In this document: positions 3,014 to 50,728 of the stretch, one piece after another | Numbering within the stretch: position 1 is the stretch's first letter | Layout of the letters: each line of letters starts with the position of its first letter | NCBI GenBank assembly: GCA_050732935.1 | Contig: JBOHRW010000217.1 | Location: 398-64,397 of the forward strand | Reading direction: 5' to 3' | DNA length: 64,000 nt | Source: Gemmatimonadota bacterium | Lineage (GTDB): Bacteria; Gemmatimonadota; Gemmatimonadetes; JACCXV01; JAHWKZ01 | Notes under the pieces: model-generated | Told to the model about the DNA's origin: nothing | Databases searched by the model: none | The model's input: the letters and a program-made list of their open reading frames with translations, nothing else | Made by a program: the position numbers and the translations under genes

Positions 3014-3577
3014 TCAGAAGATGAAGGAGATCCCGCCCGAGAACTCCAGGTTGTTCGTGGCCTCGCTGTCGTCCTCTCCGCTCTCCACGAAAATGATGTT
3101 GTCGCGGACCTCGCCGCGCAGCGCCCAGGTGGCCGTGCTCGGCGCGCCGTTGTACCACTTCACGCCGCCGCCCACCGGAATGAGGAGGTTCGTCTCGCTG
3201 TCCTCGATAGGCTCGGGCACGTCTGACACCTTGATCGTTGCCGCTCCCACTCCCGTGCCAACAAAGAATCGGGCCGGACCCGACGCAGGGAACATGTACT
3301 CGAGACCTATGCTGTAGAGATACATGTTCACGTCGAAGTCATCGCCCTCGAAGTCGGCGTTGGAAGGGATCCAGTCGAAGTTGCCGCCCCACGCTACGCC
3401 GTTGGCGTACTGGAGCATCATCCGGGCGCCGAGGATACCGTCCGTGTCATCCACGTTGTCAGCGCTGAAGGCACCGCCGTGGAGGTTCAGCTCGTACCAG
3501 TTCTGAGCCCGTGCAGGTTCCGCCGTGAGCAGAGCGACCAGCAGCCCCAGGGCCGCGACCAACGATAGCCGGTACAT
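3014..3577 (-). CDS. outer-membrane beta-barrel protein (paralog family 1 of 4)
   Basis: Signal peptide MYRLSLVAALGLLVALLTAEPARAQ. Alternating amphipathic strands. C-terminal ...NLEFSGGISFIF with a terminal Phe typical of OMP barrels. Homologous to the 3750, 5463 and 16710 genes (NLHGGA..., WA.R.D.RDNII...). Confidence 0.7.
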   Translation of the reverse strand: MYRLSLVAALGLLVALLTAEPARAQNWYELNLHGGAFSADNVDDTDGILGARMMLQYANGVAWGGNFDWIPSNADFEGDDFDVNMYLYSIGLEYMFPASGPARFFVGTGVGAATIKVSDVPEPIEDSETNLLIPVGGGVKWYNGAPSTATWALRGEVRDNIIFVESGEDDSEATNNLEFSGGISFIF

Positions 3578-3749: not shown

Positions 3750-4391
3750 CTAGCTACCGAAGAAGAAGGATATCCCACCCGAGAGCTCGAGGTTGTGGGT
3801 AGCCTCCGGATCGACGTCGCCCTCGTCCACATCGAAGCGGTCGCGCCAGATGATGTTGTCGCGAAAATCGGCGCGGAACGCCCAGCTCTGGCGGGTCGTC
3901 CGGCTGAACCACTTGAGGCCGACGACGAGCGGCACGAGGAAGTCCGTCTCGCTGTCGTCGATACCCGGCGGCGCGTCCTCGAGGCTGATCGTCGCGGCTC
4001 CGACGCCGCCCCCCACGAAGAGGTGGAGGCGGTTCGGCGACGGAAACGTGTAATCCACCTCGGCGCTATACAGGAACACGTTGATGTCGAGATCCTCGTC
4101 CTCCGCCGAAGAGCCCAGGTCGATCTGCGCGGCGGGGATCCAGTCCAGGTTCGCACCGAACCCCCATCCTGGAGCCGTGTTGTAGAGGAAGCGCAGGCCG
4201 ACCATCCCGTCGGTGTCGTCGGTCTCCCCGAGTGAGCTCGCGAACTCGTCGTCGAGAAATAGCGCTCCGCCATGGAGGTTGAACTCGTAGTTGTTGTCGT
4301 GGTAGTGGGAAGCCGGGGACTGGGCCTGGATGGTGGGTGCCGTGAGCCCGAGCGCGAGCAGCGCTCCGAGCACGAAGCCGGCGGTCTTCAT
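3750..4391 (-). CDS. outer-membrane beta-barrel protein (paralog 2)
   Basis: Starts at MKTAGFVLGALLALGLTAPTIQAQ (ATG at 4391). Ends ...NLELSGGISFFFGS. Clear paralog of 3014..3577. Confidence 0.7.
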   Translation of the reverse strand: MKTAGFVLGALLALGLTAPTIQAQSPASHYHDNNYEFNLHGGALFLDDEFASSLGETDDTDGMVGLRFLYNTAPGWGFGANLDWIPAAQIDLGSSAEDEDLDINVFLYSAEVDYTFPSPNRLHLFVGGGVGAATISLEDAPPGIDDSETDFLVPLVVGLKWFSRTTRQSWAFRADFRDNIIWRDRFDVDEGDVDPEATHNLELSGGISFFFGS

Positions 4392-4618
4392 CGATCGCTC
4401 CCTTCGCCTTGGTTTGCGGGATGGAGCCATGTCAGGATTCGAATGCGAACGGTGGGGTGATCGAAAAGATAGGCGCGGCGTTTCCAGGCCGGCAACGCGG
4501 CCCTACCATGCACGGTGTCGCCTCGGGGGTTTCTGACGCCCGGGAACACCCCCAGGCTCTCTGGCGTGTATAATGAATAAGGATGTTCCGGAATTCCCGA
4601 GCGAGGAGGTCGATCTCG

Positions 4619-5338
4619 ATGTTTTCCACAGCTATCTGGTCGCCGGTCCGCGTGTTGGCCCTCGCAGCCGGCCTGCTGCTGGTCGCCGGCCCGGTCCGGG
4701 CACAGGACCGGATCGGACCGGCGTCGTCCCTTCGCGTGGTCGAGCTCGTCGACACGTCGGGCGCGCGTCTCGAACGGACGATCCTCGAACCCATGCTCCC
4801 CGCTGAGGTCCTGCGACTCCAGATCGCGCTCACGCGGGCCGGGTTCGATCCCGGTGTCCGCTCGGGCGTCGTGGATATTGAGACGGAGACCGCCCTCCGG
4901 CAGTTCCAGCTCGCCCGTGGTCTCGAAGCGTGCGGCTGCCCCTCCTACGAGACCGTGCTCGCTCTCGGCGTACCGGTGCAGGTCGTGGGACGGGCCGAGA
5001 TACGCCGGGCATCCGGGGTCCGTGCCGCGGATGGCAGCCCGGTCTACGTCCTGGAAGGCGACGGCTTCGTATCCGGTATCCTGCTCCATGACGGCTTCTT
5101 CTTTCACAGTCACAAGGATCGCTTCCACCGGCCGTTCTTCGGGAGCGGCGTGGTGGTGGGAGGCGAGCCGGCGCTGGGAGCCGGACAGGTGGGGCGGATG
5201 ATTCCGCGCTCGTCGGTCGGTGTCCGGGAGATCGTGCGCCCTGCGCCGTCCGGTCGCGGCGGCACCATTCAGCCGGCGGTTCCCGATGCGGGCGGCGACG
5301 GGGGCTCCCGGCCGCCGAGGCCACAGCCGAATCAATAG
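4619..5338 (+). CDS. secreted protein with peptidoglycan-binding (PG_binding_1-like) domain
   Basis: GGAGG lies 10 nt upstream of ATG 4619. Signal peptide MFSTAIWSPVRVLALAAGLLLVAGPVRAQ. LRLQIALTRAGFDPGVRSGVVDIETETALRQFQLARGLEACG resembles the PGRP/PG_binding_1 helical repeat. An overlapping minus ORF 4388..5335 exists but has no recognisable features. Confidence 0.5.
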   Translation: MFSTAIWSPVRVLALAAGLLLVAGPVRAQDRIGPASSLRVVELVDTSGARLERTILEPMLPAEVLRLQIALTRAGFDPGVRSGVVDIETETALRQFQLARGLEACGCPSYETVLALGVPVQVVGRAEIRRASGVRAADGSPVYVLEGDGFVSGILLHDGFFFHSHKDRFHRPFFGSGVVVGGEPALGAGQVGRMIPRSSVGVREIVRPAPSGRGGTIQPAVPDAGGDGGSRPPRPQPNQ

Positions 5339-5462: not shown

Positions 5463-6599
5463 CTATCCGGTCGTGCCGCGCACGCCCTGCTCGACCTGAT
5501 AGGGCTGATACGTATCGGCCGGCGCGCACAGCGGCAGGTAAGCCTCAGTATAGGGCTGACGCGCTTCGACTCGCACGTAGACCGGAACGCCGTCGTACTC
5601 GCCGATCTGGACGAGCTGATCCATCCCGATCGTGGTCGAGGACCCGAACTTCACCCAGTTCCGTCCGTCGACCGAGATCGTCTCGTTGAAGCGGTACCAG
5701 TCGCGCCCGTCCGCGCAGGCCGCCGCCGGCTCCGGCTCCACGACGATCGGGCAGCCTTCGCTGTCGACCTCCTCGCCGAACGGCGTCTCGGGGCACTGGT
5801 CGCGGTCATCGGGAACGCCGTCCCCGTCCGAGTCCACCGGGACCGGGCAGCCGAAGCTGTCGACGGGCGTGCCGAGCGGCGTATTGGGGCATTGGTCGCG
5901 GTCGTCGTAGACACCGTCGCCGTCAGCGTCGGTCGGGGGCGGTGGCGCCGCCGGCCCGCCACCGAAGAAGAAGGAGATCCCGCCCGAGAGCTCCCAGTTG
6001 TTCTTCCACTCTGTATCGTCCTCGAGCGGTGTGGGGTCCACAGCGTCGATGTCGTCGCGCCAGATCAGGTTGTCGCGCGCGTCGATCCGCAGGGCCCAGG
6101 TGGGATCCTCGGCGTCGTTGTGGACCTTGAGCCCGATGCCGACCGGGATGAGGAGATCGGTCTGGCTTTCATCCTCGTCGTTCACACCTACATCCCCGAG
6201 ACGGGTCGTCGCTCCACCCACACCGCCGGAGAGGAAGAAGTTGGTAATTCCCGCAGAAGGGAAGGTGTAGTCAATCGTTCCACTCCACAGGAAAAGACCG
6301 ATATCGATGTCGTCTGGCTCGGGGTTTGTATCTGTCGGTGGCCTCTCGATCTGATCGGCGAAGACCCAATCGCCGTTGACGCCGATCCCCAAGCCGTTCT
6401 CCCAGTGGCGGGCCAGGCGTAGGCCGGCGAGCACGTCGGTGTCCGTGTTGTCCTCGTCATCATCATCGTCGATGCCGAGGTCGTAGGCGAACGCGCCGCC
6501 GTGAACGTTGAATTCCCAATAGTTGTGCTGGGCCTGCGCCGCGTGTGGCGTGAGAAGCGCGACCAGGGCCCCCAACATGAGTGCCCAAGCGTGTCGCAT
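5463..6599 (-). CDS. outer-membrane beta-barrel protein with TSP type-3 (OmpA-like) Ca-binding repeats and an uncharacterised Cys-containing C-terminal domain (paralog 3)
   Basis: Starts at MRHAWALMLGALVALLTPHAAQA. Barrel ends GGISFFFGGG. It is followed by repeats DADGDGVYDDRDQCPNTPLGTPVDSFGCP and DSDGDGVPDDRDQCPETPFGEEVDSEGCP, then CADGRDWYRFNETISVDGRNWVKFG...GEYDGVPVYVRVEARQPYTEAYLPLC. No OmpA_C domain is present. Confidence 0.75.
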   Translation of the reverse strand: MRHAWALMLGALVALLTPHAAQAQHNYWEFNVHGGAFAYDLGIDDDDDEDNTDTDVLAGLRLARHWENGLGIGVNGDWVFADQIERPPTDTNPEPDDIDIGLFLWSGTIDYTFPSAGITNFFLSGGVGGATTRLGDVGVNDEDESQTDLLIPVGIGLKVHNDAEDPTWALRIDARDNLIWRDDIDAVDPTPLEDDTEWKNNWELSGGISFFFGGGPAAPPPPTDADGDGVYDDRDQCPNTPLGTPVDSFGCPVPVDSDGDGVPDDRDQCPETPFGEEVDSEGCPIVVEPEPAAACADGRDWYRFNETISVDGRNWVKFGSSTTIGMDQLVQIGEYDGVPVYVRVEARQPYTEAYLPLCAPADTYQPYQVEQGVRGTTG

Positions 6600-12490: not shown

Positions 12491-13849
12491 TCAATTCGAT
12501 TCCTCGTCCATGACCGTCAGGATCAGCGTGAGCGTCTCCCGCTCATCCGGGGCCAGGCTGCCCACGGACCACACACCGGTCGCCTGGTCGTAGGCCCCCT
12601 TGCTGGCGGTCGCCGAAGTCAACGCGAGCCGGGGCGGGATCCCCTGAACGAGCTGGACGCCGGTGGCGGTCACCGGTCCACCGTTCCGCACCGTCACGAC
12701 ATAGGCGACGTCGTCCCCGACGGTCGGGGAGTCGTCGCTCACCGAGACCTCGACCCCGAGGTCTGCGCTTTCGGCGGCGAAGGTGACGGTCGCCGTGTCG
12801 TCGATCGTCGCGCCGTTGACGGTCCCGGTGACCGTCGCCGTTCCGGGAGTCGTGATGGAAGTCAGGGTGGCCGTGTAGATGCCATTTCCACGGTCGCTGA
12901 CAGGACCGAGCGTCCCCAAGGTCGTCGACAGGGTGACCGCGTCGCCGCCCGATGCGAGCGGCTCCCCGTTAGGGTCGATCAGCAGGACCGTGATCGTCGA
13001 CGTGCTGGAGCCATTGGCGGGGATCGATGCCGGGTCGGCGGTGATCATGCTGTTCGCTGGCGAAGGGGCGCCCGCGGTGAACTCGACCGTCGCGGTATCG
13101 TCGATGCTCTCTCCATCGACCGTGCCGGTGACGGTGGCTGTGCCGCCCCTAGTCGGCGAGGTGAGGGTGGCGAGGTACGTGCCATCGCCTGCGTCCGAGA
13201 CGGAACCCAGGGTCCCTGAGTCGGTGGACAGGGTGACTGCATTCCCACCCGACGGGAGCGGGTTTCCGGATTCGTCGCGAAGCCGGACGGTGATCGTCGA
13301 CGTGCTCGATCCATCGGCCGGGATCGAGGTGGGGTCGGCGGTGATCTCAGAGGTCGCGCCCGAAGGCGGCCCCGGCTCGTCATCCTCATCGTCATCGTCG
13401 TCATCCTCATCGTCGTCATCCTCATCATCCTCATCGTCGTCATCCACGACGTCGAATGGGGCGCTGGTCGTGCTCGTGAGCCCGTCCGCCGTCGCCTCCA
13501 GAGTGTATCCCGCTCCAGGCTTGCTGACCGAGAGGTTGTCGAACGTGGCCAGGCCGCTCTCGGCGTCGTCATGCTTCCGTCCACCCAGCGTGGCTCCGCC
13601 GGGGTTGGAATGGAGCCCCACATCGATGCGTGCCGTGAATGATGCCACGCGGTTTCCGGATGCATCCACGGCTTCGACCGTGACCGCAGGATCGATGTGC
13701 TCGCCCGCGTCCACATCGGTGGGCTCCTCCACGAAGCGCAGGGCGGTCGCAGTCTGAGCGCGCAGGCCGGAAGCCGGAAGGAGCGCGGCGACGAGGCACC
13801 CGAGGACGAGCGCCGATCGCCCCGGGGGATGGGTCGCCGGGGAAATCAT
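12491..13849 (-). CDS. secreted adhesin-like protein: invasin/Big_1-like Ig repeats, poly-Asp/Glu linker, C-terminal DUF11 domain (cassette B)
   Basis: Signal MISPATHPPGRSALVLGCLVAALLPASGLRA. Two repeats of the form ITADP.SIPA(D/N)GSSTSTITV.L.D..GNPL..GG.AVTLST..GTLG.VSD.G.G.Y.ATLTS. Then DDDDEDDEDDDDEDDDDDDEDDE. C-terminal ...VTVRNGGPVTATGVQLVQGIPPRL...TGVWSVGSLAPDERETLTL (DUF11-like). Confidence 0.7.
   Translation of the reverse strand: MISPATHPPGRSALVLGCLVAALLPASGLRAQTATALRFVEEPTDVDAGEHIDPAVTVEAVDASGNRVASFTARIDVGLHSNPGGATLGGRKHDDAESGLATFDNLSVSKPGAGYTLEATADGLTSTTSAPFDVVDDDDEDDEDDDDEDDDDDDEDDEPGPPSGATSEITADPTSIPADGSSTSTITVRLRDESGNPLPSGGNAVTLSTDSGTLGSVSDAGDGTYLATLTSPTRGGTATVTGTVDGESIDDTATVEFTAGAPSPANSMITADPASIPANGSSTSTITVLLIDPNGEPLASGGDAVTLSTTLGTLGPVSDRGNGIYTATLTSITTPGTATVTGTVNGATIDDTATVTFAAESADLGVEVSVSDDSPTVGDDVAYVVTVRNGGPVTATGVQLVQGIPPRLALTSATASKGAYDQATGVWSVGSLAPDERETLTLILTVMDEESN
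13378..13447 (-). repeat. GAY/GAR trinucleotide simple-sequence tract encoding a 23-residue poly-acidic linker
   Basis: Plus strand reads tcatcctcatcgtcatcgtcgtcatcctcatcgtcgtcatcctcatcatcctcatcgtcgtcatc. It encodes DDDDEDDEDDDDEDDDDDDEDDE within the 12491..13849 gene. Confidence 0.7.
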
Positions 13850-13931
13850 GAGCCTGCGAAATATGGGACATCGCCCGGGACACGACACCCCCCGACTACT
13901 TCGTACGGGGTAGGCTCCGGTCGGGTGCCGT

Positions 13932-14423: not shown

Positions 14424-16619
14424 CTAATCCGAATCCGGGCCCAGGACGCGGGTCACGATGGTGAGCGTGGCCCGCTCGCCTTCGGCCAGCGCCCCCACGC
14501 TCCAGATCCCCGTTGTCGACACGTATTCTCCCTGACTGGTCGTGGCGGATACGAACTCCAGCCGCGCGGGCAAGGTCTGGGTGATTTCGACCCCCGTGGC
14601 ATGGTCGGGACCCTGGTTGCCGGCCGTCACGACGTAGACCACCTGGTCCCCGATCCCCGGCGTCTCGTCGCTCACCTCGACCACGACCTCCAGGTCCGCG
14701 CTCCCGGCCGCGAACGTCACGGTGGCGGTGTCGGAGATCGAGGCTCCATTGACGGTGCCGCTGATGGTGGCGGTTCCCGGCGCGATGGTGGAAAGAAGGG
14801 TCGCCGTGTACGTCCCGTCCCCGTTGTCCCGCACGGCACCCAGGGACCCGAGCGTGGTCGAGAGGTTCACGTTGTCGCCGCCTGTCGAGAGGAGCACTCC
14901 TTCCGCGTCGCGGAGCTGGACGACGATGCTGGACGTGCTGGCTCCATCCGCGAGGATCGAGACGGGATTGGCGCTGATCGTGCTCGTGGCCGGCGAGGCC
15001 GCGCCGGCGGTGACGGCGAACGTCGCGCTGGTCGCACCCGCCGCCCCCGAGACCGAGAACCCGAGCCGGTAGCCGCCCGCCGATCGGTCGATCCGCAGGT
15101 CGTCGAAAGTCGCGACACCGTTCAGGAGCGGCTCGTTGACATCTCCCTGGAGGTCGGCGCCGGCGGGATTGACCGCCAGTGTGGCCGCCACGTTGCCGGT
15201 GAAGCCGGTCAGGGTGTTGCCGAGGCCGTCCACGACGCGCACGACGACCGGAGGCGTGATGGGCTCGTCGACGGGCGTGTCGGTCGGCTGCTCGTCGACG
15301 ACCAGCGTGGGCTGGCCGACCAGCGCGAACGTGACGGACGCGGTATCCGTGATGTCCGCCCCGTTCACCGTGCCCGAGATGGTCGCCGTGCCGGCCGTGG
15401 TGGCGGAGGTCAGCGTGGCCGTGTACGTGCCGTCCCCGTTGTCGATGTCGGGGCCAAGGGTCCCCGACGTGGTAGAGAGCGAGACGTCGGCTCCGCCACC
15501 GGTCAGGGGGTTCCCGAACGCGTCCCGGAGCTGGACGGTGATCGTCGACGTGCTGCTCCCGTCGGCCGGGATCGTGGTCGGGTCGGCCGTGATCTCCGAC
15601 GTCGCTCCGGAGGGTGCGGCCGGGGTGATCTGGAAAGAGCTGCTCGTCGCTTCCGTGAGCGGCGCCGAAGCGGCCTGGAGCGTGTAGGTCCCAGCCTGCT
15701 GTATCGAGAGGTCGCCGAAGGTCGCCACGCCATCCACTGCGGCCTTGCTGGTCGTGCCCATGAGCGCTCCCCCGGCCGGGCCCGTGGCGATCGACAGCGT
15801 CACCAGGCCGGTGAAGTCCGGGTCCACGTTCCCACCGGCGTTCCTGGCCTCCACGGTCACCGCGGGGGTGATGGTCTGGCCGGCCGCCCTGCTGGTCGGT
15901 TGCTGAGCGAAAGCGAGCTGAGTGGCCGGGGCGACGGTGAACGTGACCGTGGCGTCGTCGTCGAGGACCAGGTTGTCGACCGCGGCGGTCACCGTCGCCG
16001 TCCCGGTAGCCGTCGAGGTGAGGGTGGCGGTGTACGTGCCGTCGCCCCCATCGTCCACCGTGCCCAGCGAGCCGAACGTGGTGGAAAGCACGACGTCGGC
16101 CCCGCCGGTCGTCAGGGGGTTTCCGAACTCATCCCGGAGGAGGACGGTAATCAGGGCGCTGCTCACCCCGTCGGCCGGGATCGAAGTCGGGTCGACCGTG
16201 ATCTCCGACTCCTCGGGGTCCGGGGGGCCGGGAGTGATCTGGAAGGAGGCGCTGGTAGCAGCCGTGAAGTTGTCAGCCGTAGCCAGGAGGGTGTAGGTGC
16301 CGGCCTCGTCGATGTTCAGGTCGCTGAAGGTGGCCGTCTCCAGGACTGTCTGTTGGGCCACGGTTCCGTCGAGCCCCCCGGGGCCCGAGGCGATGCTGAG
16401 CGTTACGGTCACGGGGAGAATGGCGCCCGGTGCGTGGACCACGACGTCCGGCATGATCTGCCCGGCTTCCGTATCGGTCGGCTGTTCATCGAATTCGAGC
16501 GCGATCTGCGCCCTCAGGTCCTTGACGAGCGGGGAGGCGAGCGACGTGATCAGGCAGGCCAGAAGGCCGATCGCGGCGAGGGTCCCCCGCCCCGGGGGTT
16601 GGGTCACCGGGGGAAACAT
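14424..16619 (-). CDS. secreted adhesin-like protein: six alternating Ig-like modules (invasin-like + Big_1-like) and C-terminal DUF11 domain (cassette A)
   Basis: Real start MFPPVTQPPGRGTLAAIGLLACLITSLASP at 16619; the listed 1360-aa ORF continues upstream only as antisense of the OMP gene. Modules of the type QPT...AG..I.P.V.V.A.D..GN...F.G.V.L...GP.G..L.G......GVATF.DL.I..AG.Y.L alternate with ITADP.SIPADGSSTS.ITV.LRD..GNPL.GGG..V.LSTT.G.LG. Ends ...VVYVVTAGNQGPDHATGVEITQTLPARLEF...TGIWSVGALAEGERATLTI. Confidence 0.7.
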   Translation of the reverse strand: MFPPVTQPPGRGTLAAIGLLACLITSLASPLVKDLRAQIALEFDEQPTDTEAGQIMPDVVVHAPGAILPVTVTLSIASGPGGLDGTVAQQTVLETATFSDLNIDEAGTYTLLATADNFTAATSASFQITPGPPDPEESEITVDPTSIPADGVSSALITVLLRDEFGNPLTTGGADVVLSTTFGSLGTVDDGGDGTYTATLTSTATGTATVTAAVDNLVLDDDATVTFTVAPATQLAFAQQPTSRAAGQTITPAVTVEARNAGGNVDPDFTGLVTLSIATGPAGGALMGTTSKAAVDGVATFGDLSIQQAGTYTLQAASAPLTEATSSSFQITPAAPSGATSEITADPTTIPADGSSTSTITVQLRDAFGNPLTGGGADVSLSTTSGTLGPDIDNGDGTYTATLTSATTAGTATISGTVNGADITDTASVTFALVGQPTLVVDEQPTDTPVDEPITPPVVVRVVDGLGNTLTGFTGNVAATLAVNPAGADLQGDVNEPLLNGVATFDDLRIDRSAGGYRLGFSVSGAAGATSATFAVTAGAASPATSTISANPVSILADGASTSSIVVQLRDAEGVLLSTGGDNVNLSTTLGSLGAVRDNGDGTYTATLLSTIAPGTATISGTVNGASISDTATVTFAAGSADLEVVVEVSDETPGIGDQVVYVVTAGNQGPDHATGVEITQTLPARLEFVSATTSQGEYVSTTGIWSVGALAEGERATLTIVTRVLGPDSD

Positions 16620-16709
16620 GACACAGGGAATATCGCGAGCCCGGGCCTCCCGCGCACGGGCCGCTGATTGACCGGCCTCGCCCGCGGGCGTACACTGCGG
16701 AACAGCCCC

Positions 16710-18128
16710 ATGACCCCTCGCACGGCCCTCGCTCTGGTGGCGCTCCTTTGCGTCCTGTCGGCGGCTCCGGACCAGGCGGTCGCCCAGACCGGCTGGGAGG
16801 CCAACGTCCACGCAGCGACCCTCGTCAACGATCTCTTCGAAGAGAGCGGGGACGGCGTCCAGGTGGGCGGCCGACTGGTCTACACGACCCCGTGGCGGGT
16901 CACGGTGGGCGGCAACTTCGATTGGGCACGGCTGACCGATGTCGGACTGGGTCTGGTGGACGGCGCGACGGCCGACCTCCTTCTCTACAGCGGCCAAGTC
17001 GGATACGCGGTGCCCGTCGCCTCGCGGGCGGATCTCATGCTGGCGGCGGGGATCGGCGGGGTCACCATCCGTCTGCGGGATGTGCCCTCCTCGACCGGGG
17101 TGCTGACCAGCAGTTCGGGCCAGCTCGTCCCGGTAGGGGTCGGGATCAGGCTCCGGAACCGGGCCGTCGACGCCTCGTGGGCGTTCCGCGCCGACGTTCG
17201 CGACGACATCATCTTCCTGGACGTCCAGGACCCGGCGAGCGGCGATGTCGACCAGGAGCCGCGGCACAACTGGGAGATCTCGGCGGGCGTCTCGTTCCTG
17301 TTCGGCGGCGGGGAGCCGACGCCGACCCCGACCGACACTCGACCCGTGGAGCGACGGCCCGTCGAGCCGCGCCCGGAGCCCGAGGCCGACCGTCCGGCCC
17401 AGCCGAGGCCGGTCGTCCAGGGCGACGCCGACCGAGACGGGGTCCCTGACCGCCTCGACCGCTGCGTCAGAACGCCGTCGGATCTGGCCGTCGGAGCGAC
17501 CGGATGCCCGATCGACATGGATCGTGACGGCGCGCCGGACCGCCGCGTGGCGCAGGTGCCGCCCGATCGGCCTCCCGCCGACGAAGGGCCCGAGCCCCCG
17601 GAGCCTTCGGACGAGGTCGAGCCGCCCCGGGTGGGTCCGGGCGACACCGATCGGGATGGCGTCGCGGACGCCGCCGACAGGTGCGTGAACACACCGATCG
17701 GCTCCGCCGTCGACGAGCGGGGCTGCCCGCCTCCTCCACCGGCGGCGGAGCCCGGCCCGGAGGTCGAGGCGCCTGCGGTGGAAGATGAGGCGAGACCCGC
17801 CGACGAGCCGCCCGTCGATGAACGGCCCCTGGACGAGGCGCCCCCAGACGAGGCGCCGGATGAAGGCGTGGAGGCCGCTCCGCCAACCGCGTGCCTGGAT
17901 GGACGGCCGTGGGATCGCCCAGGGGTCACGATCGCATTCGATGGTCGCCTTTGGGAGCAGCTGGGTCCACCCGAGCCGATCACGCTGAGCAACCTGAACC
18001 GGGTCGGCGAGTTCGACGGGGTCCCGATCTACGTGGGGTCGGTTGCCGAGGAGCCGTACACGGACCTGTGGGTGCCGCGCTGCAGCGGGGCCTATCAGCT
18101 CTACGTGGAGGAGGGGAGCGCGGAGTGA
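16710..18128 (+). CDS. outer-membrane beta-barrel protein with TSP3-like repeats and the same uncharacterised C-terminal Cys domain (paralog 4)
   Basis: Start MTPRTALALVALLCVLSAAPDQAVAQ. Barrel ends AGVSFLFGGG. Pro-rich linker. DADRDGVPDRLDRCVRTP...GCP and DTDRDGVADAADRCVNTPIGSAVDERGCP. C-terminus ACLDGRPWDRPGVTIAFDGRLWEQLG...GEFDGVPIYVGSVAEEPYTDLWVPRCSGAYQLYVEEG aligns with the C-terminus of 5463..6599. Confidence 0.75.
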   Translation: MTPRTALALVALLCVLSAAPDQAVAQTGWEANVHAATLVNDLFEESGDGVQVGGRLVYTTPWRVTVGGNFDWARLTDVGLGLVDGATADLLLYSGQVGYAVPVASRADLMLAAGIGGVTIRLRDVPSSTGVLTSSSGQLVPVGVGIRLRNRAVDASWAFRADVRDDIIFLDVQDPASGDVDQEPRHNWEISAGVSFLFGGGEPTPTPTDTRPVERRPVEPRPEPEADRPAQPRPVVQGDADRDGVPDRLDRCVRTPSDLAVGATGCPIDMDRDGAPDRRVAQVPPDRPPADEGPEPPEPSDEVEPPRVGPGDTDRDGVADAADRCVNTPIGSAVDERGCPPPPPAAEPGPEVEAPAVEDEARPADEPPVDERPLDEAPPDEAPDEGVEAAPPTACLDGRPWDRPGVTIAFDGRLWEQLGPPEPITLSNLNRVGEFDGVPIYVGSVAEEPYTDLWVPRCSGAYQLYVEEGSAE

Positions 18129-18570
18129 GGCGGATCGGGGCCGGGGTGGCGTCCAGGATCGCGGTCGCGGTGGTTCTCGGATGCGGAAGCGGGACGGTGG
18201 CGCCTGACGACATCCCCGTTTCCGAGAGGGATCTACGGATCGCGGTCGCGAGCGGGGACCATCAACTGGGAGAGGTCGGAACAACGCTGCCCGCCTTCCT
18301 GGTCGCGCGGGTGACCGACGGGGCACTCTTCCCGTAGAGGACGTCCGGGTGCGGTGGGAGGCCGTCGAAGGAGATGGGGAGCTCAGCCTGAAGGGGAGCC
18401 TCACGGACCGCACGGGCCTGGCCGCCGCGGTCCTCTTCCTGGGGGACGAGCCCGGCGAGCTCGTCGTCCGCGTGTTCCTCGAGAACAAAGAGGAGGCGCG
18501 GTTCACGGCCCGAGCCGTCGAGGTCGGCGCGCCAAGGCCTTCGGTTTCTCCTGCCTCCCGGGGACGTTAA
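18125..18570 (+). pseudogene. small lipoprotein gene split by a frameshift at about 18335 (pseudogene or assembly indel)
   Basis: GTG 18125 (GTGA overlap with the OMP stop) gives VRRIGAGVASRIAVAVVLGCGSG...LPAFLVARVTDGALFP, then stop. The +2 frame continues as ...RWEAVEGDGELSLKGSLTDRTGLAAAVLFLGDEPGELVVRVFLENKEEARFTARAVEV, which looks Ig-like and protein-like. Confidence 0.3.
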
Positions 18571-36356: not shown

Positions 36357-36486
36357 CAACCGGTTGCAGCGGACGGTCCGCTCCGCGGCCCGCCGCTGAA
36401 CCGGAGCGTTAGGCCGATCAACTCCAAGGGTTGTCGGCTTCGCGCGATAGTTTCCTGCTTGGGCCTGAGATGCTAGGGGAGGGGAA

Positions 36487-37104
36487 GTGGCCGACAATCC
36501 GCCGTTCGTTACGGCCTACGGAAACATTACAAAGGCCCTGACCAAGATCCAGACAGCGGCTGTACCCCCTCGGTTTACGCAGGACTTCCTTGCCACAAAA
36601 CTGGACCTCAAAGGGGGATCGCCGAAACCGGTAATTCCTTTCCTTAAGCGGGTCGGGTTCTTGGGCACGGACGGGGTCCCTACCGAGTTGTACAAGCGGT
36701 TTCGGAACCCTAAGCAACGCGGACCGGCGGCGGCCGCCGCACTGAAGAAGGGGTACCGAACGCTTTACGAGATCAACGAGTACATCCACGAGGCGAAAGA
36801 TGATGAACTTAAGGGCGTCGTGGTTCAAATGACAGGTGGGGAGCCAGAGTCGAGCACCACAAAGGCAATCATCGGATCCTTCAAAGCGCTTCGGAAGTTC
36901 GCGGCCTTCGACGAGAACGAAGAGCCAGAAGAGCCGGAGGATGTTGAGGAGTCGGAAGAGGAATTGCCTGAAGGGCCCGATAACAAGATCACGACGACGA
37001 AACTTGGTTTGTCGTACGCGATCAATCTGAATCTTCCCGCAACCTCGGACGTAGCGGTGTTCGACGCAATCTTCAAGAGCCTGAAGGAGCACTTACTTAA
37101 GTGA
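36487..37104 (+). CDS. hypothetical protein, possibly DUF5343-like; upstream partner of a HEPN gene
   Basis: 205 aa. ...SPKPVIPFLKRVGFLGTDGVPTELYKRFRNPKQRGPAAAAALKKGYRTLYEIN resembles DUF5343 from memory (not verified). Acidic C-terminal tail. 4-nt GTGA overlap with the next gene. GC is about 52%, against about 69% for the flanks. Confidence 0.5.
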   Translation: MADNPPFVTAYGNITKALTKIQTAAVPPRFTQDFLATKLDLKGGSPKPVIPFLKRVGFLGTDGVPTELYKRFRNPKQRGPAAAAALKKGYRTLYEINEYIHEAKDDELKGVVVQMTGGEPESSTTKAIIGSFKALRKFAAFDENEEPEEPEDVEESEEELPEGPDNKITTTKLGLSYAINLNLPATSDVAVFDAIFKSLKEHLLK

Positions 37105-37700
37105 CCGATGACCACATGGCATTTCGTGACCGGCTCAAGCTCTTTGCAATGAACAATCAGTTACTTGAAAACGGCCTGGATGCGGTGGAGCAAGAGCATG
37201 CCATCGATCTCGGTCGAGGGCATCAGTGGACTGTGGGCCAGGACAAGGACTACTACCCACAACTTGACCAAGCGGTCCGCACGGAGGCGCGTGCAATGGC
37301 GCCGCACTACGAGATTTTCTACTCGCTCGAGAATTCGATTCGAAGTCTCATCTCGGAAACACTCGAAGTAGCCGAACCTGCGGGATGGTGGGAGAGCGGC
37401 CGCGTCCCGCCAACGATCAAAGCAGCCGCTGAGGAGACGCGAAGGCGAGAGATTGAATCTGGGATGACGCCACGGTCTGCAGAGCCCCTCGACTTCACGA
37501 CTTTCGGGCAGCTCGGGGAAATCATCAAAACCAACTGGGATGTCTTTGGGGGCATGTTCAACAGCCAGAGAGCCGTTGAGCGCGTAATGGCCAACTTGAA
37601 TACGCTTCGTGGTCCGATAGCTCACTGCAGCCCACTTGCTGAGGACGAAATCGTGAGGCTTCGTCTCAGTGTTCGAGACTGGTTCCGCTTAATGAGCTAA
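37101..37700 (+). CDS. HEPN-domain protein (Swt1-like HEPN, R-x4-H motif)
   Basis: C-terminal ...ANLNTLRGPIAHCSPLAEDEIVRLRLSVRDWFRL carries the R-x4-H HEPN signature followed by a conserved helix. 199 aa. Confidence 0.55.
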   Translation: MTDDHMAFRDRLKLFAMNNQLLENGLDAVEQEHAIDLGRGHQWTVGQDKDYYPQLDQAVRTEARAMAPHYEIFYSLENSIRSLISETLEVAEPAGWWESGRVPPTIKAAAEETRRREIESGMTPRSAEPLDFTTFGQLGEIIKTNWDVFGGMFNSQRAVERVMANLNTLRGPIAHCSPLAEDEIVRLRLSVRDWFRLMS

Positions 37701-37817
37701 TGGCCGGACGCTTACGGCCTAACTCGCTTCAGGAGCCGACCGAGGGCTCGCTGTCGCTCGGCACTCGGCGGGTCAGCAGCAAGATTCGTTGCGCCTTGCG
37801 ATCAGGAGGCACGTCGC

Positions 37818-39071: not shown

Positions 39072-39145
39072 TCTGAACCGAGCGAGGCCCTGATCCTAGT
39101 TAGAACGCCTCGTTTGCCGCAGGGGCGGGGCGACCGCAGAATGGG

Positions 39146-40850: not shown

Positions 40851-40944
40851 CACGACCTACAGCGGATCGGCTACATTGGCCGTTAATCGCCGAACTGTTG
40901 GACACTACGCCAAATCCGAAATCCCCGCCGGGGACCAGGACCTC

Positions 40945-43050
40945 ATGAACCACAGCCAGATAGTCAGCTTCATCTGGGGTGTCGCGGATCTCATCCGCGA
41001 CACCTTCAAACGCGGCAAGTACCAGGACGTGATCCTCCCGCTCACCGTGCTGCGGCGGCTCGACTGCGTGCTGGCTCCCAACAAGTCGAAGGTCCTAGAG
41101 GTCCAGGCTAAGTACAAGGGCAAGATCGAGAACCTCGACCAGCTGCTCCGGCGCGCCTCGGGCTTCGCCTTCTACAACACCTCCCGCTACGACTTCGAGA
41201 AGCTCCTGGGCGACGCGCCGCACATCGCGCAGAACCTCCGCAACTACATCGCCAGCTTCAGCCCCAACATGCGGGAAGTACTTGAGAAATTCGACTTCAA
41301 CAACACCATCAGCAAGCTCGACGAGGCGGGACTGCTCTTCCTTGTCGTGCAGAAATTCGGCGAGGTGAATCTCCACCCGGACGTCATCGACAACCCGACG
41401 ATGGGCACCATCTTCGAGGAGCTGATCCGCAAGTTCAACGAGGCCTTGAACGAGAACCCGGGCGAGCACTTCACTCCTCGCGACGTGGTCCACCTGATGG
41501 TGGATCTTCTGATCGCAGGAGACGAGCAACGGCTACGCAAAAAGGGCGTGATCCTAACGGTATACGATCCGTGCTGCGGCTCGGGAGGGATGCTGACGAT
41601 CACGAAGGAGCACATCAAGGCAGGCGAGTGGTGCGGGCGAGACCTCCGGAAGCCGCCCGTAAACCCGGGGGCTGACGTCCATCTCTTCGGGCAGGAAGTG
41701 AACCCAGAGACCTGGGCGGTCAGCAAGTCCGATCTCTACATGAAATCGGTCGACGGCCGCGACGCGGAGAATATCGCGTACGGGAGCACCCTCTCGAACG
41801 ATCGTCATGCGGGCACGGCCTTCGACTACCTGATCGCCAACCCGCCCTACGGCAAGGACTGGAAACGCGACGAGGTCGCCGTACGGGCCGAGCATGAGCG
41901 GGGCGCCGCGGGACGCTTTGCCCCAGGGCTCCCACGGATCAGCGACGGCCAGCTCCTGTTCCTCCTGCACATGCTGGCGCACATGAAGGAGCCCAAGCAG
42001 GGCGGTTCGCGCGTCGCCATCATCATGAACGGCTCTCCGCTCTTCACCGGAGACGCCGGGAGCGGCGAGAGCGAGATCCGCCGCTGGATCCTCGAGAACG
42101 ACCGCCTCGAGGCGCTGATCGCGCTTCCCGAGCAGCTCTTCTACAACACGGGGATCGCCACGTATGTCTGGGTGCTCACCAACCGGAAGCCTCCCGAGCG
42201 GCGCGGCAAGGTCCAACTCATCGACGCCACCCGCTTCTGGACTTTGCTCCGAAAGAGCCTAGGGGCCAAACGGAGGGAGATCCCATTTGAGAAGAAGGAG
42301 GACATCCTCGCGCTGCTCCAGAACTTCGCGGACGGCGAGACCCGCAAGATCGCGGAGGACGGCGAGGAGCGCGAGCTCGTGGTGAGCCGGATCTATCGCA
42401 CGACCCACTTCGGCTTCCGCAAGATCACGGTCGAGCGACCGCTCAAGCTGGACTTCCAGGCGACGCCCGAACGGATCGCGCGACTCGATGAGGAACGCCC
42501 CTTCAAGAATCTCGCCGTCTCGCGCAAGAAAGGGGCGGCCAAGGCCAAGGAGGAGGAGGAAGGGCGCGCCCAGCAAGCCGCCATTCGCGAGCTCCTGGCG
42601 AACCTTCCGGGCGAACTCTACCTGGATCGAACCGAGTTCGAGGCGGTCCTCGGGAAGGCGGCCCGGAAGGCCAACCTGAAGCTCGCCGCTCCGATCAAGA
42701 GGACCATTCTCTCGGCACTCTCCGAGCGCAACGAGAGCGCCGAGATCTGCCGCGACAAGGACGGAAATCCGGAGTCCGACACTGAGCTTCGGGACACCGA
42801 GAGCGTTCCCCTCTCCGAGAGCGTTGAGGCCTTTTTCGAGCGCGAGGTAAGGCCCCACGTCCAGGACGCGTGGATCGACATCAGCCGGCGCGACCCGCAG
42901 GACGGAGAAGTCGGCATCGTGGGTTACGAGATCAACTTTAACCGCTACTTCTACGAGTACCGCCCACCGCGGTCGCTGGAGGAGATCGAGGCCGACATCC
43001 AGCACGTGGAGAGAGAGATCGTCTCGATGCTGCGGGAGGTCGCGGGGTAG
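40945..43050 (+). CDS. hsdM: type I restriction-modification system, DNA methyltransferase subunit M (long form)
   Basis: HsdM N-terminal domain, FTPRDVVHLMVDLL, VYDPCCGSGGML, LIANPPYGKDW (NPPY). Confidence 0.9.
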   Translation: MNHSQIVSFIWGVADLIRDTFKRGKYQDVILPLTVLRRLDCVLAPNKSKVLEVQAKYKGKIENLDQLLRRASGFAFYNTSRYDFEKLLGDAPHIAQNLRNYIASFSPNMREVLEKFDFNNTISKLDEAGLLFLVVQKFGEVNLHPDVIDNPTMGTIFEELIRKFNEALNENPGEHFTPRDVVHLMVDLLIAGDEQRLRKKGVILTVYDPCCGSGGMLTITKEHIKAGEWCGRDLRKPPVNPGADVHLFGQEVNPETWAVSKSDLYMKSVDGRDAENIAYGSTLSNDRHAGTAFDYLIANPPYGKDWKRDEVAVRAEHERGAAGRFAPGLPRISDGQLLFLLHMLAHMKEPKQGGSRVAIIMNGSPLFTGDAGSGESEIRRWILENDRLEALIALPEQLFYNTGIATYVWVLTNRKPPERRGKVQLIDATRFWTLLRKSLGAKRREIPFEKKEDILALLQNFADGETRKIAEDGEERELVVSRIYRTTHFGFRKITVERPLKLDFQATPERIARLDEERPFKNLAVSRKKGAAKAKEEEEGRAQQAAIRELLANLPGELYLDRTEFEAVLGKAARKANLKLAAPIKRTILSALSERNESAEICRDKDGNPESDTELRDTESVPLSESVEAFFEREVRPHVQDAWIDISRRDPQDGEVGIVGYEINFNRYFYEYRPPRSLEEIEADIQHVEREIVSMLREVAG

Positions 43051-43177
43051 CTCGTACCGAAACCTCTGCACCACCAGCGCCGGTGTCTGCGTGTGTTCCC
43101 CCTCCACGGGTCCGTGCCAGTGGACACAAAATGTAGGGGATTGCGCCTAACCCCCGACGCTTTGTATCATCCACCCC

Positions 43178-43774
43178 GTGAACAAGCGGGATCAAGCCCT
43201 GGCGATCATCGAGGAAAGGGGCCTCGTCCGCCCAAAAGAGCTCGAGGCCCGGGGTGTGTCGCGCGCGCTGCTCTATCGTCTGGTTCGCGAGGGGCTCGTC
43301 GAGAGGCAGACGCGGGGCGTGTACGCTCTGGCGCGCCACACACCTACAGCGGAGCATACACTAGCGCAGGTGGCGAAGCGCGTTCCGGCGGGCGTGTTCT
43401 GCCTACTCACCGCTCTACGCTTCCACGGCCTCACCACCCAGGCGCCCGCCGAGGTGTGGATCGCGCTACCCGAGAAGGCGCGGATCCCCCGACTCGACTA
43501 CCCCCGGCTGCGGGTCGCGCGCTTCTCGGGGGCCTCGCTCACGGAAGGGGTCGAGACGCACCAGGTCGAGGGCGTCGAGGTGCGCGTCTACTCGCCGGCG
43601 AAGACCGTGGCCGACTGTTTCAAGTACCGCAAGAAGATCGGCATCGATGTGGCCGTCGAGGCGCTTCGCGACTTCACCCGACTGTATCGCGGGGGCGCGA
43701 CCGATCTGGCTCGGTTCGCTCGCATCTGCCGGGTCACCCGCGTGATGCAGCCCTACCTGGACGCCATCGCATGA
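43178..43774 (+). CDS. abiEi: AbiEi-family antitoxin (type IV TA, N-terminal wHTH)
   Basis: GTG start. MNKRDQALAIIEERGLVRPKELEARGVSRALLYRLVREGLVERQTRGVYAL is an AbiEi_4-like N-terminus. 4-nt ATGA overlap with the following NTase gene. Confidence 0.75.
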   Translation: MNKRDQALAIIEERGLVRPKELEARGVSRALLYRLVREGLVERQTRGVYALARHTPTAEHTLAQVAKRVPAGVFCLLTALRFHGLTTQAPAEVWIALPEKARIPRLDYPRLRVARFSGASLTEGVETHQVEGVEVRVYSPAKTVADCFKYRKKIGIDVAVEALRDFTRLYRGGATDLARFARICRVTRVMQPYLDAIA

Positions 43775-44724
43775 ATCCCACCAAGCGGAACATCGCCGCT
43801 TCGGTCGCTGCGCGCCTGCTCAACGAGGCCCGACGTACTGGTGACGATTACCAGACCCTGCTCACAGCGTACGCGTTCGAGCGGTTCCTGTACCGCTTGG
43901 GCCTCTGCGAACTGCGCGATCGTTTCGTGCTCAAGGGCGCCATGCTCCTCCGCCTGTGGTCGGACAATCCGTACCGTGCAACCCGCGACCTGGACCTCCT
44001 GCGGACAGGCGACGGATCGTTTGATGCCATCCGGGCAGACCTCCGGACCATCTGCACGGTTCCGGTGGACCCCGACGGCATCGCCTTCGAAGTCGATTCC
44101 ATTCGTGTCGAGGCTATTCGGGCCGAGGACGAGTTTGCCGGTACCCGCGCGACGCTGCTTGCGCGTTGTGGCTCCGCGCGCTTGTCCCTGCAGGTGGACA
44201 TGGGCCTCGGCGATGCCGTTTGGCCGCCTCCCCAGCCCATCGTCTATCCCTCGCTGCTCGACTTTCCGGCACCCGAGGTGCTTGCGTACCCGCGCGAGGC
44301 GGTCGTGGCGGAGAAGCTGGAGGCGCTGGTGGTCCTCGGCGACCGCAACAGCCGGATCAAGGATTTCTTCGACCTGCACCACCTCGCGAACCACTTCGCC
44401 TTCGATCGAGGGACGTTGGCCGATGCTGTGCGTCGAACCTTTGCCAGACGCGCCACACCCATTCCGGCCGAAGCGCCGATTGGTCTCACTCGCGCATACT
44501 GGGAGAACCCCTCACGCCCAGCTCAGGTGCGCGCCTTCGCTCGGCGTTCAGGTCTAGAGATACCGGAGGACCCCGGTCACGAGCTGGCAGACCTCGTCGG
44601 CGCGTTCCTCCTGCCGATACTGGACGATCTCCGACGGGGCGCCGAGGAGACTGGATCGTGGGCTGCCGGGGGACCCTGGCGGCTGATCACGCATGCCAGG
44701 CAAGAAAGCCAAGCCGATGTCTGA
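43771..44724 (+). CDS. abiEii: AbiEii/AbiGii-family nucleotidyltransferase toxin (DUF1814)
   Basis: FVLKGAMLLRLWSDNPYRATRDLDLL (NTase motif of DUF1814). 318 aa. Lies directly after abiEi. Confidence 0.75.
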   Translation: MNPTKRNIAASVAARLLNEARRTGDDYQTLLTAYAFERFLYRLGLCELRDRFVLKGAMLLRLWSDNPYRATRDLDLLRTGDGSFDAIRADLRTICTVPVDPDGIAFEVDSIRVEAIRAEDEFAGTRATLLARCGSARLSLQVDMGLGDAVWPPPQPIVYPSLLDFPAPEVLAYPREAVVAEKLEALVVLGDRNSRIKDFFDLHHLANHFAFDRGTLADAVRRTFARRATPIPAEAPIGLTRAYWENPSRPAQVRAFARRSGLEIPEDPGHELADLVGAFLLPILDDLRRGAEETGSWAAGGPWRLITHARQESQADV

Positions 44725-46054: not shown

Positions 46055-47097
46055 CCTTCTCCCCGCGCTTCTCGATCTCCAACGCCAGCGCCGAAGCGCT
46101 GACGCAAATCGAGCGGGCGCGGGGGTTTCTCGAGGCAGCGAGGCTCTCGGAGGATTGGCTCGCCTCCATGCGCTCGCGCGCCTTCGTCCTCGAAGCTCAC
46201 CACACGACCCACATCGAGGGGACCCGGCTGACCCTCGAGCAGTCCGAGCAGCTCCTCGCGGGCCATGAGGTGCCGGAAACCGATCCAGAGGATGCGCGCG
46301 AGCTCCTCAACTACCGTGAGGCCTTCGAGTTCGTGAGCGACTGGCTCAAGGATGGCGAGGCCATCACGGAGGGTCTGATCCGAGAGATCCACAGACGTCT
46401 TGTCGCCGGCGTACGTGGGGGGTCGGCGGCTCCCGGAGAGTATCGCCGCGTGCAGAACTACATCGTGAACATGGCCGCGGGCGAGACGGTCTACGAGCCG
46501 CCTCCCGCCCACGACGTACCGATCCTGATGCGGGAGCTGGTCACCTGGCTGAACGATCCGGGTCAGGTCCACCCGGTGCTTGCCAGCGGGATGGCGCAGT
46601 TCCAGCTCGTCCACATCCATCCGTTCCTCGATGGAAATGGCCGGACTTCGCGGCTCCTCTCCACGATCTGTCTCTATCGAAGCGGCTACGACTTCAAACG
46701 GCTCTTCACGATCAGCGAGTACTACGACCGCGATCGCGCCGCGTTCTATCGCGCTCTCCAGGGCGTGCGAGAGGCCGGCATGGATCTGACAGGCTGGCTC
46801 GACTTCTATACCCAGGGGCAGGCCACGCAGCTCGACGAGGTCAAGGCGCTTGGCGAGCGTGCGATTCGGCGGGACGTGCTCGTCCGCGAGCATGGGCTCT
46901 CGGAGCGCCAAGGGCTAGCCCTTGGGCACGTGATGGAGAACGGGTCGCTGACGATCAAGGACTACGAGGCGCTCTGTCCGGGCGTCAGCCGGCGTACTTT
47001 GCAGAGAGATTTGAAAGGGCTTGTGCAACGGGCTCTCTTGAAGACCAAGGGCGCCACAGACCGTCTTCAATACGTTGGAGGCAAGTCACTTACGTGA
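46051..47097 (+). CDS. fic: Fic/DOC-family protein (AMPylator-like)
   Basis: [16 protein letters not shown] (HPFx[D/E]GNGR). GTGA overlap with the hsdS stop. Confidence 0.85.
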
Positions 47098-47155
47098 ACT
47101 TGCGACAAACTTGCGGCAGAACTTGCGACAGACTCGCGACGGGACTTGCGACATG
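47098..47155 (+). repeat. tandem direct repeat array, five copies of ACTTGCGACA with 11-12 bp period, filling the fic-hsdR intergenic space and ending on the hsdR ATG
   Basis: acttgcgacaa / acttgcggcaga / acttgcgacag / actcgcgacggg / acttgcgacATG. Confidence 0.7.
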
Positions 47156-50100: not shown

Positions 50101-50719
50101 GCGGATCACCGACGACCAGGCCTTCGGCCGGGCGCTCAAGAACCTCCTCTTCGACGACTACATCCGCCGCCATCGTCGTGTGGAGGAGTTGCTGAAGCTC
50201 CAGGAGTCCAAGACGCTGGAGTTCAAGTCGAGCCTGCGCTGGAACCTGAAGGAGGACTGCAAGGACGACCGCCACGTCACCCACGCGGCCCTCAAGACGA
50301 TCGCCGCCTTTCTGAACACTGAGGGCGGTGACCTCGTGATCGGTGTGGCCGATGACCGCACCGTCGTTGGCATCGAGCCCGACCGGCTCGAGAACGACGA
50401 CAAGTTCATGCGCCACCTGGCCCAGGTGGTCAGGAACGGTCTCGGGGTTCGCGCCGGGACCTGCATCGATCCCAAGACTCAGATCGTGGATGGGAAGACG
50501 GTCTGCCTGGTGAGCTGTCAGCGGAGCCCGGAGCCTGTATTCCTGAAGTGGAAGGGGCTGGAGAAGTCCAAGAGCGGGGACCTCTTCGTGCGCAGCGGCC
50601 CCAGCACAATCCCGCTGGAAGGCGATGACGTCGAGGAGTTCATCACTACGAGATTTCGTGCGACGGTCGGGCCAGGCGCAGGGATAGCACCAGTTGACGA
50701 ACCTCGGACACCAGCATAG
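47153..50719 (+). CDS. hsdR: type I restriction enzyme R subunit with C-terminal AlbA_2 (Schlafen-like) domain
   Basis: HsdR N-terminal nuclease and SF2 helicase motifs (QHSAGSGKSFT, DEAHSSQ, ...). The C-terminal 170 aa, ESKTLEFKSSL...HAALKTIAAFLNTEGGDLVIGVADDRTVVGI, matches the AlbA_2 core. Confidence 0.9.
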   Translation: MTQRVSERAFEEAIECALLEHGPDACPGDATAVREPPPTFDGDPLPGGYRKQRPEYYDRALCLITKDVIDFLLATQPKEWERLRQHHGSEVKDRFLSRLSREIGRRGALDVLRNGVKDSGCKFRLAFFRPASGLNEETRRLYAANLFSIVRQLRYSERGEPSLDLVLFLNGIPLFTAELKNPLSGQDVEDAIRQYRTDRDPREPLFAYGRCLAHFAVDPELVFVTTHLRGSATRFLPFNQGRFGGAGNPPVPPTRKGYATAYLWERTWARDSVLDLVRQFIHEVEEEDKRSLIFPRYQQLDCVRRLVRHARNHGTGQRYLIQHSAGSGKSFTIAWLAHQLSTLHDAEDRRVFDSIVVVTDRLVLDRQLQRTVRQFEQTLGVVENIDQTSRQLKEALESGRTIIVTTLQKFPVIAEQIEQLRGQRFAVVLDEAHSSQTGESSKSLKQALTAGSLEEAEAEEAGAGTPEEEIEDAVHEEIRRRGPQPNLSTFAFTATPKPKTLELFGRKRPDGQFEPFHLYSMRQAIEEGFILDVLANYTTYKTYWRLLKKIEDDPRYDRRKAQYLLKSFVDLHPHAIQEKIRIMVDHFAGKVQGEISGRAKAMIVTRSRLHAVRYKRALDRYLKEKGHMWKSLVAFSGTVEDGGKRYTESGMNSAGEDHVIGERQTALEFGKPECRFLVVANKFQTGFDQPLLHTMYVDKKLGGVNAVQTLSRLNRTHPGKTGTMVLDVANEAEEIRKAFEPYYETTLLSEETDPNLLYEVQGRLLGFGVYTEVDVAAFARVYFDSKTTQDQIYAALESIRERFGEITPEEQAGFWGQVTDYVRLYAFLSQVLTFADPDLEKLYVFARYLRRLLPADPEELPREVQQNIDMESYRIQEMSRGRIKLERQAGKLGPMRSKPGHGRGEEELEPLSQIIAELNERFGLNLGPEHRIALERIRDALDEDAGLDASARVNTRENVRLTFDPKVEDKIQEIVDTNFELYKRITDDQAFGRALKNLLFDDYIRRHRRVEELLKLQESKTLEFKSSLRWNLKEDCKDDRHVTHAALKTIAAFLNTEGGDLVIGVADDRTVVGIEPDRLENDDKFMRHLAQVVRNGLGVRAGTCIDPKTQIVDGKTVCLVSCQRSPEPVFLKWKGLEKSKSGDLFVRSGPSTIPLEGDDVEEFITTRFRATVGPGAGIAPVDEPRTPA

Positions 50720-50728
50720 ACGGAGAGA

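Follow-up and report, generated by a model that had tools for sequence, protein, structure and literature searches.

An uncatalogued C-terminal domain stands in the place of OmpA_C on outer-membrane barrel proteins of Gemmatimonadota

To our knowledge, the fastening of the outer membrane to the cell wall has been worked out for few systems (Lpp, Pal, OmpA, and OmpM/SLH), mostly from Proteobacteria. OmpA_C is a peptidoglycan-binding alpha/beta domain with long helices, and the described systems closest to the locus considered here are OmpA-family proteins in which it follows a barrel and TSP3 repeats, as in TraB of Myxococcus xanthus and in P0299, an 'OmpA family protein [Gemmatimonadales bacterium]'. 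Our locus lies in a window of 64 kb, the whole stretch of Gemmatimonadota DNA that was analysed and to which positions refer unless another locus is named; it comprises two paralogous outer-membrane protein genes, paralog 1 (16710..18128, forward strand) and paralog 2 (5463..6599, reverse strand), whose products share the barrel and the TSP3 repeats with those systems and end in a tail of a different kind. P-numbers denote homologous proteins from our profile and homologue searches, and L-numbers related genome or metagenome loci. TraB, with its barrel, TSP3 repeats, and OmpA domain, has been described as the anchor of an adhesin complex to peptidoglycan (PMC12045341).

Comparison of the window proteins with TraB and P0299 reveals likeness along most of the chain: a signal peptide, a PF13505 barrel, a disulfide-containing and calcium-binding TSP3 linker, and a compact C-terminal domain that is presumably periplasmic in both, the barrel and TSP3 part being homologous at 30-35% identity over nearly its full length. 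The difference lies in the C-terminal domain, which in the window proteins is predicted to be all-beta and has no PF00691. When only the barrel and TSP3 part of paralog 2 was used as query, relatives of at least 47% identity (about 370-385 residues long) proved to end in an unrecognised tail with no Pfam domain there, whereas relatives of 30-35% identity, aligned over 89-99% of the query (P0285, P0292, P0299, P0320), end in PF00691 OmpA. The similarity between P0299 and paralog 2 stops right after the last TSP3 'GCP', which is where OmpA_C begins in P0299 and the new domain begins in paralog 2. Since the remoter barrel and TSP3 homologues end in OmpA_C, this is a domain swap: in the window genes the new domain sits exactly where OmpA_C sits on the same scaffold, as a preliminary description of this DNA had proposed. 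PF00691 is found neither in the whole paralogs at E<=1, nor in the tails at E<=10, nor in the 149 relatives of the family model given below, and a tblastn search of the window with OmpA_C from the same phylum shows that no OmpA_C is encoded there. What is known, then, is the OmpA-like scaffold of barrel and TSP3 repeats; what is new is an uncatalogued C-terminal domain upon it.

The products of paralogs 1 and 2 (472 and 378 residues; open reading frames supported by NCBI and Pfam) are identical to MGH7558869.1 and MGH7558859.1, respectively, both named 'outer membrane beta-barrel protein' and both from a Gemmatimonadota metagenome-assembled genome (MAG), and these exact matches to NCBI-called proteins fix both start codons. 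Each consists, from N- to C-terminus, of a signal peptide, a barrel of about 190 residues with an aromatic-rich final strand, a linker with two DxDxDGxxDxxDxC...GCP repeats, and a tail of about 80 residues. The only Pfam families present are OMP_b-brl (PF13505), which scores 35.8 bits in paralog 1 and 30.4 in paralog 2, both above the gathering score of 28.7, and TSP_3 (PF02412), which at 25.3 bits passes the cut-off of 25 in paralog 1 and at 19.9 falls below it in paralog 2, despite two plain copies of the DxDxDGxxDxxDxC motif in the latter. In paralog 1 (+) the signal peptide MTPRTALALVALLCVLSAAPDQAVAQ (16710..16787), read from the sequence as a hydrophobic core followed by AVA-Q with a probable cleavage site there, precedes the barrel (16788..17312, PF13505 at E=1.2e-8, final aromatic-rich strand EISAGVSFLFGGG); Pro/Glu-rich linkers then carry two TSP3 repeats, DADRDGVPDRLDRC...GCP (17424..17510) and DTDRDGVADAADRC...GCP (17643..17729), both recognised by TSP_3 and by motif; and the new domain, ACLDGRPW...YQLYVEEG, with its Cys pair, occupies 17889..18116, counted from the residue that flanks the first Cys (family hidden Markov model (HMM) E=1e-25, HMM positions 5-83). 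In paralog 2 (-) the corresponding parts are the signal peptide MRHAWALMLGALVALLTPHAAQAQ (6528..6599, likewise read from the sequence, with a probable cleavage site), the barrel (5955..6527, PF13505 at E=5.5e-7, end ELSGGISFFFGGG), two TSP3 repeats assigned by motif, DADGDGVYDDRDQC...GCP and DSDGDGVPDDRDQC...GCP (together 5748..5930), the new domain, ACADGRDW...YQPYQVEQG, again with the Cys pair (5484..5720, counted likewise, E=1e-31, HMM positions 5-89), and a C-terminal hexapeptide VRGTTG-COOH (5466..5483).

The two tails resemble each other far beyond chance. The last 85 residues alone are 47% identical over 79 residues (E=1e-22), the whole paralogs align at E=2e-44, and a six-frame scan of the window with the family HMM returned exactly two copies of the domain, those of paralogs 1 and 2. 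The homology claimed in the preliminary description is therefore sound, and the peptide strings that it quoted from both tails are present in the translated sequence; the start that it gave for the paralog 1 tail, 17870, is one base out of frame, a translation from there aligning with nothing, and has been moved to the codon boundary at 17871.

No curated library contains the domain. Neither tail matches any Pfam family, even at E<=10 (a match there had been set beforehand as grounds for abandoning the claim), and Pfam covers the domain region in 0 of 149 full-length relatives and 0 of 25 extended modules. LysM, SH3b, SPOR, AMIN, and PG_binding_1-3 from Pfam-A are likewise absent from the tails and from the domain region of the relatives. 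NCBIfam gave only sub-threshold matches to the two paralogs, in their TSP3 or barrel parts and never in the tails, and ten diverse representatives of the family matched nothing in NCBIfam except the PilQ part of one protein. One such match, to the Pal / PA1041-family anchor lipoproteins (NF053612), is through the TSP3 region only, at 44-60 bits where the cut-off is 250, and the peptidoglycan-binding OmpA_C part of that family is missing from the window proteins; the likeness to Pal lies elsewhere, in certain lipoproteins of the new family which have a lipobox, a Pro-rich linker, and a C-terminal domain in the Pal layout. A profile search of PDB sequences yielded no match beyond a marginal one to the Ig-domain 3oq3_B (E=0.016-0.036), which we regard as spurious because Foldseek shows no Ig-like structure match, and a literature search found no description of the domain. 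Its carriers are labelled in their sources 'hypothetical protein', 'outer membrane beta-barrel protein', 'thrombospondin type 3 repeat-containing protein', or 'opacity protein-like surface antigen'.

The domain does have a confidently predicted fold. An AlphaFold2 model of copy 2, made from an 82-sequence alignment, is all-beta, with a mean predicted local distance difference test score (pLDDT) of 86.2 and a predicted TM-score (pTM) of 0.74; a one-turn helix leads into six strands that form three hairpins, lower confidence is limited to the first and last few residues, and a model made from four sequences has the same topology. Foldseek found no match with E<0.3 in either PDB or BFVD. The best PDB match, the lantibiotic-immunity lipoprotein SpaI (2lvl), is also small, mostly beta, and extracytoplasmic, but at E=0.33, a query-normalised TM-score of 0.44, and 11% identity the match is non-significant and gives no ground for homology or function. 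The tails are thus copies of a genuine, autonomous all-beta domain of about 80 residues that lies outside every curated library.

Nor is the domain confined to its source genome; poor conservation elsewhere would have been the second ground, by the preliminary description, for abandoning the claim. With a four-sequence profile, HMMER was run exhaustively over 1.84 billion cluster representatives and found 402 proteins at E<=1e-3, of which 39 reached E<=1e-10 and 3 reached E<=1e-30; an HMM iterated on the best 152 retained 149 proteins with 214 copies of the domain, one copy in 84 proteins and two in 65. FG-GAP repeat proteins (P0058, P0082, P0094, P0118, P0141) that had entered as members were false positives and were lost on iteration. 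The conserved core reads W-[YF]-x4-(P)-I-x-F-x-G-x-x-[YWF]-x3-G ... L-x-R-x-G-E-Y-x-G-V-P-[VL]-[YF] ... P-x4-[YFW]-[VL]-P ... Q-x-Y, and both window copies match the family profile over its full length, including W15, G33, G47, G51-V-P, P69, and Q-x-Y79. Mean pairwise identity among 60 paralog 2 orthologues is 55% in the barrel, 80% in the TSP3 repeats, 63-68% in the new domain, and 91-94% in VRGTTG; the domain is thus better conserved than the barrel that carries it. Every relative with a named source belongs to Gemmatimonadota: narrow alignments led to 19 genome loci, 18 of them in MAGs of Gemmatimonadota or Gemmatimonadales, and NCBI names two proteins from other subfamilies after Longimicrobiaceae and Longimicrobium, both taxa of this phylum. 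The subfamily with tandem domains is known from metagenome contigs. Narrow-alignment searches of metagenomes gave only 5 loci, a word-indexed homologue search with a single tail just two fragments, its profile version just short 'hypothetical' fragments, and the plasmid collection no match to the domain.

The preliminary description had made two Cys residues a feature of the domain, and this holds for the subfamily of the window copies but not for the family. The Cys pair of the window copies co-occurs in 27 of 27 copies of the OMP/TSP3 subfamily, with 3 further copies retaining the second Cys only; elsewhere, 45 copies have a single Cys at other places in the domain, and 87 have none. Other subfamilies have pairs of their own. 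The 'PGCEFQPY' subfamily is extended at the N-terminus by about 40 residues ('VCVV...TGDT'), and the Cys of this extension is, together with that of PGC, invariant in 25 of 25 sequences; in a third subfamily the partners are an 'ICL' Cys and an 'LDC' Cys. Strictly co-occurring pairs that join an N-terminal segment to the domain body would fit disulfides formed in an oxidising extracytoplasmic compartment. The extension, which in many relatives (P0070, P0129, P0028; L022, L023) precedes the domain as '[IV]xVCVV..G.L..V.A.Y.P.TGDT', has no Pfam match either in the 25 extended modules. At the other end, VRGTTG terminates paralog 2, of which it is the most conserved part among the 60 orthologues, and is absent from paralog 1; an RGTTG terminus is found only at the extreme C-terminus of domain-bearing proteins, in the window and 25 loci. 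A motif akin to it, 'R.G.LAGTTGS..PSFP', follows the first domain of tandem proteins (P0155, P0158, and others).

The domain is carried by a wide range of proteins and is usually the last thing in them, ending no more than 10 residues from the C-terminus in about 138 of 151; in both window proteins, which have signal peptides, it ends 2-4 residues before the stop. Pfam recognises OMP_b-brl in 16 of the 149 proteins, TSP_3 in 12, and AMIN with secretin in 1. Besides the OmpA-like, 8-strand-type OMP_b-brl barrel with TSP3 repeats seen in the window, the carriers include larger barrel-like N-terminal regions joined to the domain by Pro-rich linkers; lipoproteins laid out like Pal, in which a clear lipobox precedes a Pro-rich linker; the single AMIN and secretin protein, of PilQ type by NCBIfam; proteins with an unrecognised N-terminal domain and one TSP3 repeat; and small proteins that consist of a signal peptide and two copies of the domain. 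The domain is accordingly a mobile, exported, extracytoplasmic module, always behind a signal peptide or a lipobox. Tandem-domain genes on three long-read metagenome contigs (L020, L026, L027), several of whose genes look fragmented by frameshifts, adjoin truA and glycogen-debranching or alpha-amylase genes; this shared truA/glycogen-debranching context was the whole of what the tandem-type neighbourhoods offered, and no functional partner was found in them.

Orthologues of paralog 2 lie in a conserved gene order, between an EamA transporter gene on one side and, on the other, a convergent PG_binding_1 gene and then 2-4 small barrel-only paralogs (L001-L015, loci of 50-93% identity), and the PG_binding_1 gene adjoins the orthologue in all 13 loci with a long enough flank (L001-L003, L005-L009, L011-L015). 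In the window the barrel-only OMP_b-brl paralogs near paralog 2 lie at 3014..3577 and 3750..4430 (-), and the secreted PG_binding_1 protein that converges on it is encoded at 4583..5338 (+). Paralog 1 lies beside adhesin-like genes whose products combine Big_1/Invasin_D3 repeats with a DUF11 at the C-terminus, in the window (12491..13888 and 14424..16628, both -, divergent from paralog 1) and in L018 only. The longer of these (14424..16628) has an N-terminal lipobox, LLAC, and an open reading frame called at 14424..18506 (-), which overlaps paralog 1, is an artefact. On the other side, the GTG start of a small lipoprotein gene (18125..18570, +; lipobox VLGC, one Big_1-like Ig domain; L018 2459..2884) overlaps the TGA stop of paralog 1 as GTGA, an overlap which suggests that the two may be translationally coupled. 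The lipoprotein gene is split by a frameshift near 18320-18349 in the window, which could be an assembly error or mark a pseudogene, and is intact in L018. traB likewise lies beside adhesin genes, and the context of paralog 1 is suggestive, in the few genomes that show it, of an adhesin-associated anchor as in TraA/TraB.

Elsewhere in the window, a probable acquired defence island occupies the stretch from about 36000 to 51000. Its GC content is 0.575-0.66, against 0.67-0.72 in the remainder, and its defence genes encode DUF5343 with HEPN_Swt1 (36487..37700), HsdM (40876..43050), an AbiEii toxin (43093..44724), and a fusion of HsdR with a Schlafen AlbA_2 domain (47075..50719). No tRNA genes were found in the window.

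What might the domain do? We give about an even chance to the proposal, drawn from analogy of architecture, that it is a periplasmic anchoring or binding module which ties outer-membrane proteins to an underlying structure, with peptidoglycan as the leading candidate, a recognition chemistry unlike that of OmpA_C, and the TSP3 repeats as spacer. Both ends of an even-stranded outer-membrane barrel face the periplasm, and this topology, together with the lipoprotein and secretin fusions, is why we place the domain there. The barrel would be fixed in the membrane, the calcium-binding TSP3 repeats would hold the C-terminal domain at a distance, and the domain would bind the structure beneath the outer membrane. 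A role in anchoring or binding is suggested by carriers that match those of OmpA_C in kind, with OmpA-like barrels and Pal-like lipoproteins in both cases, and the same parallel in carrier repertoire makes peptidoglycan the leading ligand; the suggestion in the preliminary description that the periplasmic ligand differs from that of OmpA_C is a reasonable, if putative, one. We put forward more tentatively, as possible though doubtful, that the family represents a new class of anchor to the cell wall or another periplasmic scaffold in Gemmatimonadota, which complements or replaces OmpA_C in the tethering of barrels, lipoproteins, and a pilus secretin, has a fold with no characterised relative, and may use VRGTTG in binding or attachment. 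Several observations weigh against the anchoring proposal. Peptidoglycan is a candidate ligand only, and the domain has no similarity in sequence or fold to the peptidoglycan-binding domains of the Pfam library (OmpA_C, LysM, SH3b, SPOR, AMIN, PG_binding_1). OmpA_C proteins are also present in the phylum (P0299), so that the new domain may have a role other than theirs; among the 149 proteins, 65 are small, soluble, two-domain proteins without a membrane anchor, which is compatible with a binding module but does not point to a tether in particular; and the neighbourhoods give no functional clue, the PG_binding_1 gene being convergent rather than operonic and the tandem genes simply lying beside truA.

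A specific protein partner, or a polymer other than peptidoglycan, is a serious alternative as ligand. The domain could be a docking or oligomerisation module, which recruits a periplasmic partner such as the PG_binding_1 protein or the downstream Big_1 lipoprotein, or which associates with itself, and does not bind the cell wall at all. The PG_binding_1 gene beside paralog 2 orthologues in 13 loci, the GTGA overlap with the Big_1-like lipoprotein gene in the window and L018, and the divergence of paralog 1 from adhesin genes in the same two places, which recalls the TraA/TraB adhesin-anchor pair, would all be at home in such a scheme; the invariant VRGTTG C-terminus could serve as docking motif, and the soluble two-domain proteins as bivalent adaptors. 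Yet the PG_binding_1 gene, besides being convergent, shows synteny only in fairly closely related genomes, so that this adjacency may be no more than inherited gene order; the adhesin adjacency is found in two genomes only; and the very different carriers and contexts of the domain favour a common, ubiquitous ligand over one partner; docking seems to us rather unlikely. We consider it improbable that the domain binds a carbohydrate or other ligand of a different sort, a polymer or solute such as exopolysaccharide or periplasmic glucans, perhaps outside the cell in some proteins. Small all-beta folds with conserved aromatics are typical of carbohydrate-binding modules, and the domain has nearly invariant aromatics at W15, Y29, Y49, Y55, Y67, and Y79 as well as many small, secreted, anchorless members; but it matches no Pfam carbohydrate-binding family, the aromatics may just form the hydrophobic core, and the barrel, lipoprotein, and secretin fusions put it in the periplasm.

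Two further readings deny that the domain is new or that it is a domain. An OmpA_C so diverged as to escape HMM recognition would explain why the tail has the same position after the TSP3 repeats, but not the lack of any OmpA match in the tails at E<=10 or in the 149 relatives, nor the end of the alignment at the last TSP3 repeat; and because the predicted fold is all-beta, six strands and a one-turn helix where OmpA_C is alpha/beta with long helices, we reject a degenerate OmpA_C as highly improbable. Still harder to credit is that the tail is a paralog-specific leftover of a recent duplication, or a compositional artefact of a genome with 65-72% GC. The paralogs are indeed alike along their whole length, but the domain recurs in unrelated carriers, in tandem copies, and in hundreds of sequence clusters, and by itself folds confidently in AlphaFold2.

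Gemmatimonadota abound in soil, and their biochemistry has scarcely been studied. As a conserved module that replaces OmpA_C on the barrel and TSP3 scaffold and recurs on Pal-like lipoproteins and a PilQ secretin, the domain is a candidate for a further system of tethering or periplasmic docking in these bacteria. It supplies a small, confidently predicted fold without a significant Foldseek neighbour in PDB, and a new domain family would improve the annotation of hundreds of proteins now called 'hypothetical' or 'outer membrane beta-barrel'.

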